This document shows, one piece after another, positions 38,029 to 44,599 of a DNA stretch of 64,000 nucleotides (position 1 is its first letter; every line of letters starts with the position of its first letter). The notes below the pieces were generated by a model that did no database searches, had not been told where the DNA came from, and worked only from the letters and a program-made list of their open reading frames with translations. The translations under genes were made by a program, and so were the position numbers. The stretch is from a virus. Location: positions 1 to 64,000 of IMG/VR virus record IMGVR_UViG_3300035703_004050. One strand, given 5' to 3'.

Positions 38029-41000
38029 ATGGCAGATAAAATACCAATTCCAAAACCAAAACCTGCTGCGATAGCGGCCGCTAGACAACAAGCGTTATCG
38101 GGTGCAATTGGTAATGTAACAGGTGGTGCAAATACACTTACTAATCCACCAGGTGGAACTCCAAACTCAGGATGTTCTCCAGCGACCCCAACAGGTGAAG
38201 CGCCTCCAGCAGGTGAAAATGCAGTCCAAGGCCCAACAACAAACGCGCCCGGGGGATTAAGTGGTCCATTAGGTGGTGTAAGCCCTTCAGTTCAAAATAT
38301 GGTTAGAAATTCTATACCTGCTGGGTGTAGAGCTCAAGTAACGCCTAATGGTGGAGCAAGACCAAGAGGTGTCGGGGGTTCTGCTCATCCAAGAGGGTTA
38401 GCAGTGGATACTAATTTGTTTTGCGGAGGTAAGCAACAATTCCGCGGTAGCCCGCAAATGAATCAATATATTTCCAATTTGCATAAAAATGGTGCAAGGG
38501 GGTTATCATATTATAATTCAGGATTTGTCCATGCAGATTTAATGGGGAACAGAACAAGGCGCTGGGGATCAAATCAAGGATATGTAAATGCTTTAGCAGC
38601 AGGACAAGATCCAGGCCCTGGAGCAGCACAAGCTGCCCAAGAAGGTGGATATGGTGGTGGTGGCGATCCTTGCGGCGGCGGAGGCAGCGGCGGATGTCAA
38701 CCTGTTCAAAGTTCTGCTCCACAGATTGCTTCAGGACTATCTCAAAATCTAGGAATGGATGTTCCTAGTATGGTTCAAGGACTAGCTGGTTCCTTACTTG
38801 GTGGTAGTCCTTTAGCAGCAGCAATGTCACAAGTTACAGGTGCAATACAGAGTGCTTTAGGTGCTGCTGGTGGTTTATCTGGTTTGCTTGGTGCATTACC
38901 ACTTAGTCCAGCAGCTTTATCAGATCCAGCTGGGGCGATCTCAAAAGCTATAACTGATAAAGTAGCTGGAATGGGCGCAAATATTTTACCTAGTATTGTA
39001 GGCAATGTACCAGCAGGATTACAACAATTCTCTGGTATAGCACAAGGACAAATATCAGACAAAATTACCTCAACAGCTAATCAAATTTTTTCAAAAAGTA
39101 GCCCACCACAATTAGATAAATTTATTAGCATTTTTAATGCTGCTAATGGGGCTCAAGGATTTTCTAGTGCTTTACAAGAAACTGTTGGTAACACTTTAAA
39201 TAATGTGTTTGGTAATGCTGGTGAACTTTTTCAAAATCCTCAAAAAAATAATTGGGCTTTAAGATCTTCTATACCAACAGAGGAAAATGAATTTATACAA
39301 TTAAATGGTCCCTTTATTGGAGAAGTAAGTGATGCAGTTGCTCAAACTGTAGTTAGGAGTCAATTTATTGGTGATCCAAAAACAGTTTTATCTAATTTAA
39401 TTGGAAGATCTACTTTAAATGCATTCTCTTCTATGTTTTACGATTGGGACGCATATGTAACTCGAGGTTACGGTACTATAACAAATAATGTAATTCAACT
39501 TGGTACTGATTTTAAAAGTTTAGGAAAACTCGCTGATTTAAATGATATATTGCGTATTGGTACTCCTGGTCAAATTTCTCAACAAATTATTTTAAATGGT
39601 GGAGGAGCAGCTACAGGTTTATTGAATTTTATGGTTGAATCGGGGTTATCGTTTTTTGATTTATCAAGTGTTGAAAATGATCCAAAAGCTGCAGAGTTTT
39701 TAAAAAGCGTTGCAGATCCAGAATTAATAGATTATGTTAAGCAAATTTTAGAAATGGATTCTAATCTTAATTTGTCAACTCTTGAAGATTTATTAGATAC
39801 TAAAAAAATCTTACCACTTAGCTATGAATATAACTATTTTGAAAATTTAAATGATATTGCTGTTTTTTTAAGTATGTGTAACGGAGCAGGGCAAGTCACA
39901 ACACTTCGCGCACTTGGTGAATTATTAGAATCATTTGAAGTATTATTTGATTCTTCTTCATTAACTGGTGATCCCGCAGTTTATAATTATGAACAATTAA
40001 CAGAGTTTTCTAGTCAATATGCACCAGTAAGTTATTTTTCAACAGATGGCACTTTAACTATTGCTGATTTTATTGGAACTGCTGCTGGGTATATACATGA
40101 AACAACTGTTCCTAGAATAGCTGAAATTCAAAATGAACTTTATCAAGATACTGAATACTTTGATGATTACTTAGAATTATTAGAATTATTGCGTGATGCT
40201 GCAAATGGTAATTATAAAGTCTTAGGAACACCACCGGCTCCTAATACAGTAGTGATACCATCAACTGCTGGTTATGGATTTGGGACATATCTAACTTTAG
40301 ATGACGCAATGTCTGATATTGTTGATGCTATAGAAGAGGAATTAGCATTCATTTTAGAAACAATACAAGAAGACGAAAATGATGAAGTTTTAGAATTAAT
40401 TAGAGAATTAGATTCTCTGCATACAGAAAGTGCTATGCAATTAGCAAAGGAACATAAACTTAGAAAAGAATATGGTTTTCCTTTGGGACCAAGCAAAAAT
40501 ACGGATGAATTCATTGGTGATGGAGTAACTAGAGTTTTACCATTAACACAAGATATTGATACAGAAGATGAAATTAATATCTTTATAAGTGGTGTTTGGC
40601 AATCTCCTTCAAAATATACTGTAAATGCTACAGCTAATACAGTAACTTTGGTAACAGCACCGGCACAAGGTAGATTAGTTTCTGTAAATTATAAAACTGG
40701 AGCATTTAACGGAACTGCTAATAAAATGCAAGTTTGGGAATTCGCATCCAGTTTAGAAAACTATGCATTAGAAACTGGATATGGAAAATCTGCAGATTTC
40801 TTAAGACGTGTAGTAACAAATGACGAATATGGACAAAGAATTAATGCCACATTAATGAACGCAAGAAACAAAGCTCGATCTGAAGCGGTAGGTTTAAATT
40901 GTCCAAATTTTGAAACAGTTAATGGTGCTAGCCCAACATACATAAATTATGTTAATTGGACTGGAGTATGGACTAGTAATGCAACTAGAGCAGCAGAAAT

Positions 41001-41535
41001 ATGGTTACAAGATAAACAAGACGTTAATGAAAGTTCTGAATATTTAATTAGAAGAATGAGTCAAAATAAAATTAATATCGAAGCAGAAATTGATTTACTA
41101 ACATCAAACTTTGTAAGACAATTAATATTTTATAATAATGGAAACTTAGCCATAACTGATTTAATGTCTGATTTATATAACGTTAATCAAAATAATAAAA
41201 TATATCGCGATAACAGAAATGATTTGTTTATCAATTATTCAAATGAAATTACATCAGATGGATATATTTTAGGCCCATATAAAGAAATTTTAACAATAAT
41301 TACAGATAAGGAAAATATTAGGAACGATGTTTTCACAACATCTGTTTCATTTAATACAGAATCTTATTTAAAATCTATTAATATAGATTTAAAATTATTA
41401 GTAACAATTATACAAAGAGTGCTAACTGTGAGTACTTCAAAATATTTGGGTATTTCTGAAAATGATTTCAAAGAGATTTTTGGTATACAAAGTGTAAGCA
41501 AAGCTATTCTAAGAAACATAGTCAATAATTACTAA
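38029..41535 (+). CDS. Large baseplate/tail protein with a peptidase M15-like domain
   Basis: SAHPRGLAVD (SxHxxGxAxD) and GFVHAD; follows the PAAR gene; FIGDG.T..FISGVWQ repeat. Confidence 0.6.
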   Translation: MADKIPIPKPKPAAIAAARQQALSGAIGNVTGGANTLTNPPGGTPNSGCSPATPTGEAPPAGENAVQGPTTNAPGGLSGPLGGVSPSVQNMVRNSIPAGCRAQVTPNGGARPRGVGGSAHPRGLAVDTNLFCGGKQQFRGSPQMNQYISNLHKNGARGLSYYNSGFVHADLMGNRTRRWGSNQGYVNALAAGQDPGPGAAQAAQEGGYGGGGDPCGGGGSGGCQPVQSSAPQIASGLSQNLGMDVPSMVQGLAGSLLGGSPLAAAMSQVTGAIQSALGAAGGLSGLLGALPLSPAALSDPAGAISKAITDKVAGMGANILPSIVGNVPAGLQQFSGIAQGQISDKITSTANQIFSKSSPPQLDKFISIFNAANGAQGFSSALQETVGNTLNNVFGNAGELFQNPQKNNWALRSSIPTEENEFIQLNGPFIGEVSDAVAQTVVRSQFIGDPKTVLSNLIGRSTLNAFSSMFYDWDAYVTRGYGTITNNVIQLGTDFKSLGKLADLNDILRIGTPGQISQQIILNGGGAATGLLNFMVESGLSFFDLSSVENDPKAAEFLKSVADPELIDYVKQILEMDSNLNLSTLEDLLDTKKILPLSYEYNYFENLNDIAVFLSMCNGAGQVTTLRALGELLESFEVLFDSSSLTGDPAVYNYEQLTEFSSQYAPVSYFSTDGTLTIADFIGTAAGYIHETTVPRIAEIQNELYQDTEYFDDYLELLELLRDAANGNYKVLGTPPAPNTVVIPSTAGYGFGTYLTLDDAMSDIVDAIEEELAFILETIQEDENDEVLELIRELDSLHTESAMQLAKEHKLRKEYGFPLGPSKNTDEFIGDGVTRVLPLTQDIDTEDEINIFISGVWQSPSKYTVNATANTVTLVTAPAQGRLVSVNYKTGAFNGTANKMQVWEFASSLENYALETGYGKSADFLRRVVTNDEYGQRINATLMNARNKARSEAVGLNCPNFETVNGASPTYINYVNWTGVWTSNATRAAEIWLQDKQDVNESSEYLIRRMSQNKINIEAEIDLLTSNFVRQLIFYNNGNLAITDLMSDLYNVNQNNKIYRDNRNDLFINYSNEITSDGYILGPYKEILTIITDKENIRNDVFTTSVSFNTESYLKSINIDLKLLVTIIQRVLTVSTSKYLGISENDFKEIFGIQSVSKAILRNIVNNY

Positions 41536-41576: not shown

Positions 41577-41876
41577 ATGGAACAAAACTTTTATTATGAT
41601 TTCTCAGATTGGAACCAAAAGCGTAGTATGCTTTGGAAGTCAATTCAATTACGCGGTGATGGGATAGTTATGATGGAATCATGGAGAGACCACAATACTC
41701 TCTACAAATTGATGACTAATGCTGATCAATATGCAATGCACATCCAACGTGAAGAAACCAATTGTCGTAGACTTAGGAAGCAAACAACACGGCATCGTAA
41801 GTTAATCAAAACTTTTGAAGAGACTTTCCAAACATTAGAAACTATGGCTATTATGTATAGGTTGACCTACGCATAA
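41577..41876 (+). CDS. Hypothetical protein
   Basis: TTGACA-N17-TATAAT upstream. Confidence 0.65.
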   Translation: MEQNFYYDFSDWNQKRSMLWKSIQLRGDGIVMMESWRDHNTLYKLMTNADQYAMHIQREETNCRRLRKQTTRHRKLIKTFEETFQTLETMAIMYRLTYA

Positions 41877-41886
41877 ATATGTCGAT

Positions 41887-42069
41887 ATGGAAACACATAA
41901 GAGAAGTATAGTTAAATCAATCACATGGCGTGTAATTGCAACTTTAATCGCAGCATATTGGGTAGGGTTTGAAATAGCAATTCTAATGAACATTGTTCAA
42001 ACAATTGCTTATTACATACATGAAAGACTTTGGGTACACATTAATTGGGGACGCCAAACTAATAATTGA
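41887..42069 (+). CDS. DUF2061-like small membrane protein
   Basis: ETHKRSIVKSITWR...YYIHERLW..I.WG. Confidence 0.75.
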   Translation: METHKRSIVKSITWRVIATLIAAYWVGFEIAILMNIVQTIAYYIHERLWVHINWGRQTNN

Positions 42070-42094
42070 CCTAAAGATGCTTATCGCGTATAAG
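42066..42094 (+). promoter_or_regulatory. Sigma70-type promoter of the tmRNA precursor
   Basis: TTGACC-N17-TATAAG. Confidence 0.65.
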
Positions 42095-42100
42095 TATATT

Positions 42101-42164
42101 TGTAAGCGTTGATAGTGCTTTAAAAACATTTGGGACCGGGGGGCAGTACCCCGCGCCTCCACCA
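42101..42164 (+). ncRNA. ssrA: Permuted tmRNA, acceptor piece (T-arm plus 3' acceptor strand and ACCA)
   Basis: CGGGG-GGCAGTA-CCCCG T-arm, then CGCCTCC-A-CCA; 5' end estimated from the promoter. Confidence 0.9.
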
Positions 42165-42176
42165 TAAGGAAATGGT

Positions 42177-42533
42177 ATGCGTATAAGTGAAATGACATTA
42201 GATGTACCAAACATTTTGTATCATGCCACTTATCGTCCATTGCTTAGTTCAATTAAAAAGAACGGACTAGGTGGGACAGGTAGTGAAGTTAAACGATGGG
42301 ATGATAGTATCCATGGAATCGTTTATCTTGCATTAGATCCAGATGTCGCTGAAAGTTATGCAGAAACAAGTGAAAATGTTCCTGATGAATGGCTAGATGA
42401 AATCGTAGTGTTAAAAATTGATACTACACAATTAGATAAATCTAAGTTTCGTTTAGATAAAAACGTTCAAGATAACACAGGTGACACATTGGAATATAAT
42501 GGAGTAATACCTATCTCAGCAATTTCCTTATGA
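42177..42533 (+). CDS. Tpt1/KptA-like NAD+-binding (ADP-ribosyltransferase fold) protein inside the tmRNA intervening segment
   Basis: P..LYHAT...SIKKNGL...VYLA.D...A..YA...VVLKID...E....IP...I; SD AAGGA. Confidence 0.65.
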   Translation: MRISEMTLDVPNILYHATYRPLLSSIKKNGLGGTGSEVKRWDDSIHGIVYLALDPDVAESYAETSENVPDEWLDEIVVLKIDTTQLDKSKFRLDKNVQDNTGDTLEYNGVIPISAISL

Positions 42534-42534
42534 T

Positions 42535-42740
42535 GGGGGCGAACTAGGCTCGACCTGTGTATAATAAGGGCAAGGGAGTTTACAGTGAGGCGACTGACTT
42601 TTACAGCGCAATATAATAAATGCAAACGATAACTTCGTTCGTAACGAGCAAATTGCTCAGTCTATCGTAGTTCGCGACCGCGACCTCGTAGCAGCATAAG
42701 CTCAACGGGCCGTTGGGAGCCTTGGAACAGAATCCCAACA
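42535..42740 (+). ncRNA. ssrA: Permuted tmRNA, coding piece; tag ANDNFVRNEQIAQSIVVRDRDLVAA (42622-42699)
   Basis: GGGGGCG pairs with CGCCTCC giving G3-U70; GAACTAGGCTCGAC; ANDNF...AA tag; GGAACAGAA-containing hairpin; 3' end approximate. Confidence 0.92.
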
Positions 42741-42770
42741 TTTGACACAGACACACAGAAAGGAAAAACT

Positions 42771-42995
42771 ATGTCATTAAATCCATATGAGATTCGTCTC
42801 GAACTTCTAAAACTAGCACAAACAACTCTAAATGAAAAGGCCTACAATTCTCGTCAAGCATTGATGGATCAATATCAGTACGAACGTGAAAATAGTCCAA
42901 ATACTGCTTTTCCAAAGCTTCCAACAATGCCTACTTCTGAGGAAATCATTGCTGAAGCCAAAAAACTTAATGACTTTGTAAGCAATAGTCAGTAA
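42771..42995 (+). CDS. Small phage protein
   Basis: PYEIRLELLKLA...PTSEEII..AKKLNDFVS; SD AAGGA. Confidence 0.8.
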   Translation: MSLNPYEIRLELLKLAQTTLNEKAYNSRQALMDQYQYERENSPNTAFPKLPTMPTSEEIIAEAKKLNDFVSNSQ

Positions 42996-43110
42996 TGTAA
43001 AGTGGTAGGCACATACCGTAAAGTTGTGTCGTGAACGATGGATCGGTCACACGAAAGAGGACGCTGGATTGCGTAACCAGCACATAACATTTATAAATGG
43101 AGTATGAATA

Positions 43111-43596
43111 TTGAAGAACTATATTAAGTCTGCAATTGCAGCACTAGCACTTGTTGGCATGACCACTACGAGCATGGCAACGGATTCAAATTCAGACAGC
43201 GCAGGGTTTAAGGTTGGTACACTTACATGCCACTTTGACACTAGCGTTGGTTGGGTAATTGGTTCCGTTAAGGAAGCTGATTGTCTTTACAAGGGACTAA
43301 ACGGCGAAGAGCAGCTTTATACTGCTGAACTTGGTCGCCTTGGTGTGGACATTGGTGTAACTGGCGCACAGACAGTTGTTTGGGCAGTTATTGCTCCAGG
43401 TAAGGCACAACCAGAAAGCCTTGAAGGTACTTATGTTGGTGCTAGCGCAGAAGCAACTGCTATTGTTGGGCTAACTGCTAATGCACTGCTTGGTGGTTTT
43501 AAGAAGAGCATTGCACTACAACCAGTAAGCATTGGTTCACAAACTGGACTAAACGTTGCACTTGGTGTTGGTTCACTACGACTAACAGCACAATAA
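43111..43596 (+). CDS. DUF992-like secreted protein
   Basis: Signal peptide; VGTLTC, GWVIGS, GVDIG, L.G.Y.GASAEAT and LQPVS..Q.GLNVA.G. Confidence 0.8.
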   Translation: MKNYIKSAIAALALVGMTTTSMATDSNSDSAGFKVGTLTCHFDTSVGWVIGSVKEADCLYKGLNGEEQLYTAELGRLGVDIGVTGAQTVVWAVIAPGKAQPESLEGTYVGASAEATAIVGLTANALLGGFKKSIALQPVSIGSQTGLNVALGVGSLRLTAQ

Positions 43597-43683: not shown

Positions 43684-43911
43684 ATGCTAGACAAAAATCA
43701 AATGGAACGTTGGCAAAAAGTTAATGCATTTCTTGAACAAGCACTTGATCAAGTTCAAAATGACAAAACTAAAAGCCGCAAAATCAAAAACATTCGTTCA
43801 AAGCTAGCATGGGCTTTGGACCAATACGAAAGTGGTCTTTCAGGTAAAACTGAATTACTACAAAAGCTAACACCTGAAGTAGCAGAAAAGTTTCAAGAAA
43901 TTTTAGGATGA
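43684..43911 (+). CDS. Hypothetical protein
   Basis: SD AGGAG; coupled to tilS. Confidence 0.7.
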   Translation: MLDKNQMERWQKVNAFLEQALDQVQNDKTKSRKIKNIRSKLAWALDQYESGLSGKTELLQKLTPEVAEKFQEILG

Positions 43912-44513
43912 TTAAACTCCTTACATCATTGCCAAAAACACTATACGTCGCTTGTAGCGGCGGTGTAGATTCTATGGCTGCGTTGGACTTTTTGTCACGC
44001 AAACATGATGTAACCGCTGCATACTTTGATCATTATACAGCACATGGCATGGAAGCAAAACACTGGTTGTGGCGTTATTGCCAAAACAAAAACATTCCTT
44101 TTGTTCACAGTGAATTATCTAGATCAAAATTGTCAGGTGAAAGTATTGAAGAGTTTTGGCGTAATCAACGTTATGATTGGTTTGATACACTTCCAGGCAC
44201 TGTCGTTACTGCACATCACTTGGATGATGCTGTTGAAACTTGGGTATGGGCTAGTATGCACGGTCAACCAAAGTTGCCAGAAATTTATCGTAACAATGTA
44301 ATCCGTCCATTCTTAGCAACACCAAAACAAGAATTAATGGATTGGTGCATTAAGAATAACGTACCATGGTTTGATGATACATCAAACACGGATACTAAAT
44401 ATATGCGTAACTATGTTCGACATGTTGCGATGCCTGTTGTCCAAAAGATTAATCCAGGTATCCAAAAGACTATCAAAAAGAAATTGCTTTCTAAATTAGA
44501 TAGTGTATATTAA
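43908..44513 (+). CDS. tilS: tRNA(Ile)-lysidine synthetase, catalytic domain only
   Basis: PP-loop SGGVDS, RNQRY, TAHHLDD.VET, IRPFL and D.SN....Y.RNYVRH. Confidence 0.9.
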   Translation: MIKLLTSLPKTLYVACSGGVDSMAALDFLSRKHDVTAAYFDHYTAHGMEAKHWLWRYCQNKNIPFVHSELSRSKLSGESIEEFWRNQRYDWFDTLPGTVVTAHHLDDAVETWVWASMHGQPKLPEIYRNNVIRPFLATPKQELMDWCIKNNVPWFDDTSNTDTKYMRNYVRHVAMPVVQKINPGIQKTIKKKLLSKLDSVY

Positions 44514-44522
44514 GTGGACAAT

Positions 44523-44599
44523 GCGCTGGTAGCTCAATTGGTCAGAGCAGCGGACTCATAATCCGTTGGTTGGGGGTTCGAGTCCCTCCCGGCGCACCA
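44523..44599 (+). tRNA. tRNA with CAT anticodon, most likely tRNA-Ile2
   Basis: Acceptor GCGCTGG/CCGGCGC, anticodon arm GCGGA-CTCATAA-TCCGT, TTCGAGT T-loop, encoded CCA; 9 nt after tilS. Confidence 0.9.

Follow-up and report, generated by a model that had tools for sequence, protein, structure and literature searches.

The transfer-messenger RNA (tmRNA) gene of viral record IMGVR_UViG_3300035703_004050, whose positions 1 to 64,000 make up the 64,000-nucleotide (nt) window analyzed here, is circularly permuted, and an open reading frame (ORF) of 118 amino acids (aa) is nested in, and nearly fills, the spacer between its two pieces. The ORF and the tmRNA share bases: a helix that extends the acceptor stem and closes the spacer carries the Shine-Dalgarno (SD) sequence of the ORF in one strand and its last codons and stop in the other. 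Our best explanation, which we regard as probable though well short of certain, is that a pre-existing processing helix frames a slot for small genes, that the cargo has been fitted to this helix, and that the SD would be masked in the full precursor. The tmRNA gene has been seen as encoding RNA alone, with a spacer to be discarded; here, real protein genes are written into and between the strands of a conserved, covarying helix and share bases with the RNase P leader and the CCA end as well as with the SD and stop codon.

Both Rfam models of the two-piece tmRNA match the + strand over their full length, RF04321 with 101.6 bits (cut-off 47) and RF01849 with 73 bits (cut-off 50), and the T-arm, the 3' acceptor strand and CCA lie upstream of the 5' acceptor strand, as the permuted order demands. 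The features of the locus are as follows.

42102-42164, + strand: acceptor piece of the permuted tmRNA gene (Rfam RF04321/RF01849 alignments and sequence)
42137-42153, + strand: T-arm (sequence register)
42154-42160, + strand: 3' acceptor strand CGCCTCC (sequence register)
42161 and 42162-42164, + strand: discriminator A42161 (A73) and encoded CCA (sequence register)
42161-42173, + strand: 5' strand of the closing helix, comprising the discriminator, CCA and then UAAGGAAAU, and including the SD (fold, repeat search, covariation)
42165-42534, + strand: intervening sequence of 370 nt, presumed to be removed at maturation (Rfam alignment and script register)
42166-42170, + strand: SD sequence AAGGA of the nested ORF, 6 nt before the ATG at 42177 (sequence; same position in 60 unique ORF-bearing spacers)
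42177-42533, + strand: nested ORF, 118 aa, predicted minimal ADP-ribosyltransferase fold resembling the C-lobe of Tpt1/KptA (homologues, pN/pS, AlphaFold2, PDB and Foldseek)
42522-42534, + strand: 3' strand of the closing helix, AUUUCCUUA (codons I S L) plus UGAU (sequence, repeat search, covariation)
42535-42742, + strand: coding piece of the tmRNA (the RF01849 match reaches 42742)
42535-42541, + strand: 5' acceptor strand GGGGGCG, with G1 at 42535 (sequence register)
42622-42699, + strand: tag frame ANDNFVRNEQIAQSIVVRDRDLVAA plus stop (translation)

The acceptor stem comprises 7 base pairs (bp) between 42535-42541 and 42154-42160, includes the alanine identity pair G3:U70 (G42537:T42158), and is followed by ACCA. 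The tag frame has an alanine resume codon, a hydrophobic C-terminus and a stop; its peptide begins with ANDN and ends with VAA. At 25 residues it is long for a tag and about twice the length of ANDSQFLQAVNA, the tag (read by eye) of locus L002, the nearest relative with the same cargo. ARAGORN reported no tmRNA in the window or in L002, despite Rfam scores far over the cut-offs for the window, and long spacers probably hide such genes from ARAGORN-based surveys. A similarity search of 42000-42800 against a phage collection gave no match, and scanning 41800-43100 for promoters and terminators gave no excess over expectation (two promoter-like sites against 5.1 expected) and no conspicuous antisense promoter.

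In the window, CATAAGGAAAT (42163-42173) is the exact reverse complement of ATTTCCTTATG (42522-42532). This 11-bp stem and the acceptor stem form a single 20-nt inverted repeat (42154-42173 and 42522-42541), 90% complementary in a repeat search, in which a pair between A42161 and T42534 and a mismatch of C42162 with A42533 are followed by the pairs C42163-G42532 and A42164-T42531 and then by 9 further Watson-Crick pairs. The stem is present in both the minimum free energy and the centroid folds of 42101-42740 (z = -5.06; 0 of 20 shuffles fold as well). None of 20,000 mononucleotide shuffles of the spacer reaches a flush run of 9 Watson-Crick pairs within it (longest run 8; P of about 8e-6 from composition), which excludes chance as the source of the closing stem. 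The nested ORF ends in ATT TCC TTA TGA (I S L stop), its stop at 42531-42533 coinciding with the conserved U(-4)G(-3)A(-2) before G1; U42534 and A42533 are N(-1) and N(-2) of the presumed RNase P site. All pairs of the distal helix are Watson-Crick, and it ranks sixth in strength among the 29 helices that have both an SD and an ORF. A first-pass annotation of this stretch had described the 11-bp complementarity, its stacking on the acceptor stem with one C-A mismatch, and a division of labor in which one strand holds the SD and part of the CCA and the other the last codons and stop; the sequence, the shuffles and the fold bear out each of these points.

The helix is not special to the nested ORF: phage-type permuted tmRNA spacers are generally closed by it, whether or not they contain an ORF. 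We scanned viral contigs with an alpha-type T-arm and CCA-end pattern that did not select for an SD and obtained at least 120 viral-contig loci, 108 of the 120 listed being called permuted (111 of 123 rows, in which the window appears twice and L002 is included). All counts from our scans are counts among the matches listed. Of the 100 unique loci in this first scan, 89 have a spacer of at least 25 nt. The same pattern applied to one genome per prokaryote species gave at least 120 loci, of which 97 of the 120 listed were permuted, with 92 unique loci and 74 spacers of at least 25 nt. A second viral scan, likewise of at least 120 loci, was selected for CCA, WAAGGA and ATG; pooled with the first, it brought the viral set to 169 permuted genes in 235 loci, with 130 unique end pairs flanking spacers of at least 40 nt.

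Across these 130 end pairs, stacked positions 2-13 are paired in 93.7% of cases, against 70.3% when partners are shuffled (maximum 72.8% in 500 shuffles) and 40-56% when the registers are slid by 1-3. Each of positions 7-13 uses 5-6 standard pair types, so that covariation of the helix is abundant. Next to the acceptor stem, A73:U(-1) is paired in 95%, C75:G(-3) in 93% and A76:U(-4) in 98%, and the C74/A(-2) mismatch recurs in 121 of the 130, making the C-A mismatch of the window a conserved feature. In 61 unique loci the helix occurs with neither an SD nor an ORF. The end-pairing in homologous loci and the covariation of spacer ends across different cargo, on which the first-pass annotation had let its proposal depend, are therefore both present.

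Compared with cellular genomes, the layout is typical of the viral set. Among spacers of at least 25 nt, the helix is flush with the acceptor stem in 78 of 89 viral but 21 of 74 cellular cases; TGAT precedes G1 in 69 of 89 versus 16 of 74, A(-2)U(-1) is found in 78 of 89 versus 32 of 74, and an SD-like motif lies within the first 12 spacer nt in 16 of 89 versus a single one of 74. The median spacer of all unique loci is 86 nt in viruses and 31 nt in cells, which makes the 370 nt of the window very long for its class, and an ORF of at least 20 codons ending at the conserved stop was found in none of the 97 permuted cellular loci listed.

Why should such a helix exist? In the excerpted text of PMC9433436, RNase P works best on an A(-2)U(-1) leader and is inhibited when the leader forms two or more pairs with RCCA. 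Under this preference, both the conserved C/A mismatch and the UGAU that precedes G1 could be read as determinants of RNase P cleavage. The whole helix is about 20 bp long, made up of the 7-bp acceptor stem, A73:U(-1), the C74/A(-2) mismatch, C75:G(-3), A76:U(-4) and 9 more pairs, and it closes the spacer in phage-type permuted tmRNA precursors like those of Alphaproteobacteria. We posit that it serves tmRNA biogenesis first, where it would bring the two halves together and offer RNase P a UGAU leader with U(-1) and A(-2). In four RNA-labelled public runs, assembled contigs match the tmRNA pieces of the window over 38 and 40 nt with 0-1 differences, and the matched pieces are separated by about 73 nt or by just a few bases; these short contigs come from relatives with other spacers, and none of them covers the spacer interior.

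With its borders fixed by the helix, the spacer would be an exchangeable slot for small phage genes. Cargo in this slot would take its ribosome site from the 5' strand and terminate at the conserved UGA, and the 3' strand would determine its two C-terminal residues. The arrangement recurs in several unrelated ORF families, in which the SD begins 2 nt downstream of CCA and the ATG falls at about +9 to +15. They include proteins of 118-120 aa (the window and L002, with L230 and L358 being the L002 contig again or identical to L002), 62-aa Cys-rich proteins at 4 loci, hydrophobic peptides of 21-29 aa, membrane peptides of 34-48 aa at 14 loci, some of them after a 23-aa acidic ORF, and singletons of 34-86 aa. 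In the three larger families, the ratio of nonsynonymous to synonymous substitution rates (dN/dS) is mostly 0.02-0.25, with a few pairs reaching 0.36, and the nested ORF of the window differs from that of L002 with pN 0.22 and pS 0.745, the proportions of nonsynonymous and synonymous differences. By these substitution patterns, the slot ORFs are real genes under purifying selection. Singletons without an SD (L038, L060, L063 and L091) were left out of the gene counts, and one in-frame family (L148 and L183) was rejected as non-coding, its dN/dS being 2.2.

The helix also reaches into the coding sequence. Among 65 unique SD-bearing spacers, 28 have an ORF that stops at the conserved UGA/UAA (-4 to -2), 19 an ORF that passes G1, 15 an ORF that stops earlier (6 of these at -15), and 3 no start codon. 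Although they encode unrelated proteins, 23 of the 28 ORFs with the conserved stop end in SL (11), FF (7) or LL (5), the dipeptides encoded by the complement of (W)AAGGA(G). Shared C-terminal dipeptides in unrelated proteins are direct evidence that the helix constrains the coding sequence. Relatives of the cargo outside tmRNA genes tell the same story: an SL ending occurs in none of the 68 with a readable frame (2 of 70 loci gave none). The first-pass annotation had placed the 3' end of the ORF under dual selection to close the loop that unites the tmRNA halves; the constraint on the last codons stands, whereas the helix did not evolve for the ORF.

Some spacers are more elaborate. Nine loci (L092, L122, L171, L187, L220, L101, L188, L228 and L225) have spacers of 159-186 nt with two ORFs, the first an SD-led acidic peptide of 18-28 aa (..GDSDEE..) whose start lies in the helix, the second a membrane peptide of 38-44 aa with its own internal SD and the conserved UGA stop. 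The ORFs that run past G1 into the mature tmRNA (for example, at L104, L139, L203, L227, L055 and L197) stop at +9/+10, at +24 to +36 or at +52/+66, so that RNase P cleavage would strip the message of its stop codon. The 342-nt spacer of L047 (1911-2253) has AAGGAG, an SD-like motif, in its helix, yet it lacks a start codon in range and holds neither a long ORF nor a tRNA; eight tRNA genes surround the locus.

What does the window carry in its slot? The nested ORF has 82 metagenomic homologues and no Pfam family; one homologue is named TPT1/KptA by one source. A profile of 42 sequences searched against PDB finds Tpt1/KptA chains with an E of 1.3e-3 over a LYHAT..SI..GL motif that aligns to residues 90-121 of a 182-residue Tpt1 chain, and DarT with an E of 1.3. 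An AlphaFold2 model (predicted local distance difference test score, pLDDT, 78; predicted template modeling score, pTM, 0.73) has the nicotinamide adenine dinucleotide (NAD) lobe of Tpt1/KptA as its closest Foldseek match (E 4e-5, template modeling score 0.55-0.59). Fourteen PDB structures match with an E of at most 0.001, and the ones listed are Tpt1/KptA chains; cholera, pertussis and Arr-type transferases come next, with an E of 0.01-0.07. The model has the split beta-sheet NAD-binding fold of the ADP-ribosyltransferase superfamily. The catalytic triad of these enzymes is H-Y-E or R-S-E; across the 42 sequences H16 never varies, Y50 and E106 are each kept in at least 90%, and these three residues may correspond to the triad.

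The predicted fold of the product is closest to that of Tpt1/KptA. Membership in Tpt1/KptA (PF01885) was rejected, the Pfam score being 12.9 against 26 bits, over residues 9-33 only, and the NCBIfam score 13.6 against 239. The N-terminal RNA-binding lobe of Tpt1 bears most of the catalytic Arg-His-Arg-Arg tetrad, and the 118-aa protein aligns only from about residue 81-90 onward of Tpt1 chains of 177-182 residues. Because this lobe is absent and the scores fall far under the family cut-offs, the protein is not Tpt1; as modeled, it has an ADP-ribosyltransferase fold. No match was found in the PADLOC defence library, PHROGs gave weak matches only (E 0.04-0.15), and the ORF has no Pfam match to the S23p family.

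The window cargo is captured from a widespread, free-standing phage domain, since only 1 of 70 viral loci with relatives of the domain is nested in a tmRNA gene, and that one (L358) is the L002 contig. The 69 others are free-standing genes of 127-140 aa or domains in proteins of 400 to >1,100 aa. In L356-L425, the domain often lies within such very large phage proteins, several of their frames being cut by the locus ends. At L003, a locus with no tmRNA, it forms the C-terminal part of a 217-aa protein; there and in L375, an N-terminal domain of about 100 aa precedes it.

If the 5' strand of the helix is the ribosome site, pairing with the 3' strand should close it. The predicted cost of opening the SD-to-AUG region is 4.8 kcal/mol in nascent RNA that lacks the 3' strand, 15.9 kcal/mol in the full precursor and 10.2 kcal/mol in the excised spacer; for the SD only, the corresponding values are 0.14, 10.7 and 5.8 kcal/mol. 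In 60 unique spacers with an SD in the helix, the mean predicted cost rises from 4.0 to 11.5 kcal/mol, individual differences spanning 2.1-14.4. The burial of the SD proposed in the first-pass annotation is thus reproduced in the folding predictions; masking follows predictably from the layout and is probably real. We propose that the SD would be free only on nascent RNA, during some 350 nt of transcription, and would become masked once the 3' strand is made, so that translation would probably be confined to a co-transcriptional window or to unfolded molecules. The maturation gene of phage MS2 is translated only on nascent chains, and we liken it to this arrangement as a functional analogue of end-pairing that closes a ribosome site. 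The terminating ribosome would in turn hold the acceptor stem open: to judge from the size of its footprint, a ribosome at the stop (42531-42533) must cover G1-G7, which would make termination and acceptor-stem formation mutually exclusive.

Several observations weigh against parts of this explanation. The flush helix is much rarer in cellular genomes and therefore not a general requirement of two-piece tmRNA maturation. SDs in the helix are a minority class, with a frequency (16 of 89) taken from the first scan because the second was preselected for them, and the UGA stop is common among the SD-bearing ORFs but not the rule, given that 19 of 65 pass G1 and 15 of 65 stop earlier. The contigs from the RNA-labelled runs are uninformative on transcription and processing here because they are assemblies of other strains. 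Masking strength is not conserved: the predicted difference is about 9.9-11 kcal/mol in the window but 2.8 kcal/mol in L002, whose helix has G-U pairs and one more mismatch. In 7 ORF-bearing spacers, the SD lies just beyond the helix and stays open (difference 2.0). SD-bearing helices are weaker than SD-less ones (-7.2 versus -11.3 kcal/mol, p = 4.6e-6), with more G-U pairs (2.0 versus 0.8) and fewer G-C pairs at a similar length (13.6 versus 13.4 pairs); their softness would fit selection that eases masking no less than selection that exploits it. Opening energies, moreover, are equilibrium predictions that ignore ribosomes, helicases and proteins. The comparative data point as much to selection that relieves masking as to a tuned switch.

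Processing could, alternatively, activate translation instead of ending it. RNase III acting on the coaxial helix of about 20 bp, or RNase E acting near CCA, followed by trimming, would release the spacer as an mRNA. The excised spacer is predicted to open more easily than the precursor (10.2 versus 15.9 kcal/mol), and SD-bearing helices are softened, both as this proposal would have it. There are precedents as well: in Coxiella 23S rRNA, RNase III removes an analogous spacer that is closed by a stem and bears an ORF (abstract of PMC4990558), and hok mRNA is switched on by 3' processing that breaks a 5'-3' pairing (excerpted text of PMC9841398). An RNase P cut, on the other hand, would leave the stop codon 1 nt from the 3' end with 9-10 helix pairs still in place, and according to the same abstract (PMC4990558) the excised Coxiella RNA is quickly degraded and its protein seemingly not made in vivo. 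We consider activation by processing unlikely.

A built-in, dedicated switch, as the first-pass annotation had it, would mean that selection acted on the helix or its strength to confine a harmful enzyme to a short burst, translation and tmRNA folding being exclusive. The window itself looks the part: its helix is fully Watson-Crick and ranks high in strength, the predicted opening difference is large, and the cargo has a predicted fold common among toxins. A local 5-bp hairpin (42161-42176, ACCAU/AUGGU) would also display the SD in a 6-nt loop on nascent RNA and is incompatible with the long-range helix. Yet the helix is older than the cargo and occurs without any ORF; L002, with the same cargo, combines G-U pairs, an extra mismatch and a difference of 2.8 kcal/mol with the lack of a counterpart to the local hairpin; 7 spacers keep their SD open; and the domain does without such a device at the 69 loci where it is free-standing or fused outside a tmRNA gene. 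The claim of a dedicated switch does not survive this comparison well, and we hold it to be improbable. That the inverted repeat is instead the footprint of mobile DNA (terminal inverted repeats) or of chance, with no role in RNA, is scarcely credible and is contradicted by covariation and shuffles: 11-bp perfect inverted repeats do flank a 348-bp segment with a gene that is free-standing elsewhere, but they lie in exact register with the acceptor stem, the same register with compensatory changes recurs in 130 unique loci with different cargo or none, 0 of 20,000 shuffles reach the repeat, and no transposase is present.

With the processing helix as a frame and the cargo fitted to it, a broader proposal can be made, although we offer it only tentatively and with more doubt than confidence. 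Phage two-piece tmRNA genes could be two-in-one expression units whose slot peptides and enzymes, gated by the processing helix of the tmRNA, are translated only co-transcriptionally, in about one pulse per tmRNA, and any cargo made later would come from a near-non-stop message and could be tagged by the tmRNA from its own transcript. Apart from that proposal, one sequence here answers to three constraints, namely RNA processing, translation initiation, and coding or termination, and the locus offers a testable model of kinetic, co-transcriptional control of translation. An ADP-ribosyltransferase-fold enzyme in a context of RNA biogenesis may also hint at its target, and the slots hold small phage proteins overlooked by gene callers and ARAGORN.

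Circularly permuted (two-piece) tmRNA genes were reportedly described by Keiler et al. in 2000 and by Sharkady and Williams in 2004. The window shares with the permuted tmRNAs of Alphaproteobacteria and aquatic phages (RF01849, RF04321) the gene order of acceptor piece, CCA, spacer, 5' acceptor strand and tag frame, along with the G3:U70 pair and a tag running from ANDN to VAA, and differs from known examples in that its spacer is 370 nt long and protein-coding. Among aquatic phages, two-piece genes are known from, for example, the OM43 phage Melnitz (excerpted text of PMC9004378). Other spacer cargo has been noted in the excerpts of PMC11915505, namely a tRNA-Ala gene and a repetitive element; there, too, the spacer tolerates functional cargo, whereas here a presumably translated gene shares bases with the processing helix. 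The terms 'ORF' and 'open reading' are absent from the main text of PMC11915505, its supplements, which might list spacer contents, being outside that scope, and PMC10117765 concerns the tmRNA tag frame only. A full-text literature search found neither protein genes in tmRNA spacers nor a closing helix used as SD and stop, in main texts and thus outside the supplements of PMC11915505 and of the Melnitz paper.

The closest relatives in logic come from other RNAs. Like the S23p-bearing intervening sequence in helix 45 of Coxiella burnetii 23S rRNA, as described in the abstract of PMC4990558, the nested ORF lies in a stem-closed segment cut from the precursor of a stable RNA; the two cases differ in host RNA, in protein family and in nuclease, which is RNase III in Coxiella. 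The Coxiella ORF, moreover, is decaying and apparently untranslated according to the same abstract, whereas the tmRNA-spacer ORFs are under purifying selection and have strong SDs. The tac/fbi fold-back of hok mRNA (excerpted text of PMC9841398) likewise closes the ribosome site of the finished RNA by end-to-end pairing, as is predicted here, and many cargo ORFs at sister loci resemble hok in encoding small hydrophobic peptides. In the tmRNA spacer, by contrast, the pairing belongs to the maturation of another RNA, the SD itself is a strand of the helix, and no antisense RNA was seen.

The tmRNA gene is flanked by a DUF2061 membrane protein upstream (41887-42069) and a DUF992 secreted-type protein downstream (43111-43596), and farther upstream, 38029-41535 encodes a Gly/Ala/Pro-rich protein of 1,168 aa with no confident family. 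In the region 43908-44599, a gene for a PP-loop ATPase (PF01171, E 2.5e-33), the family that includes TilS, ends 10 nt before a tRNA with anticodon CAT (44523-44599); the phage may encode both a lysidine synthase and its substrate, a tRNA of the Ile2 type instead of an elongator tRNA-Met.

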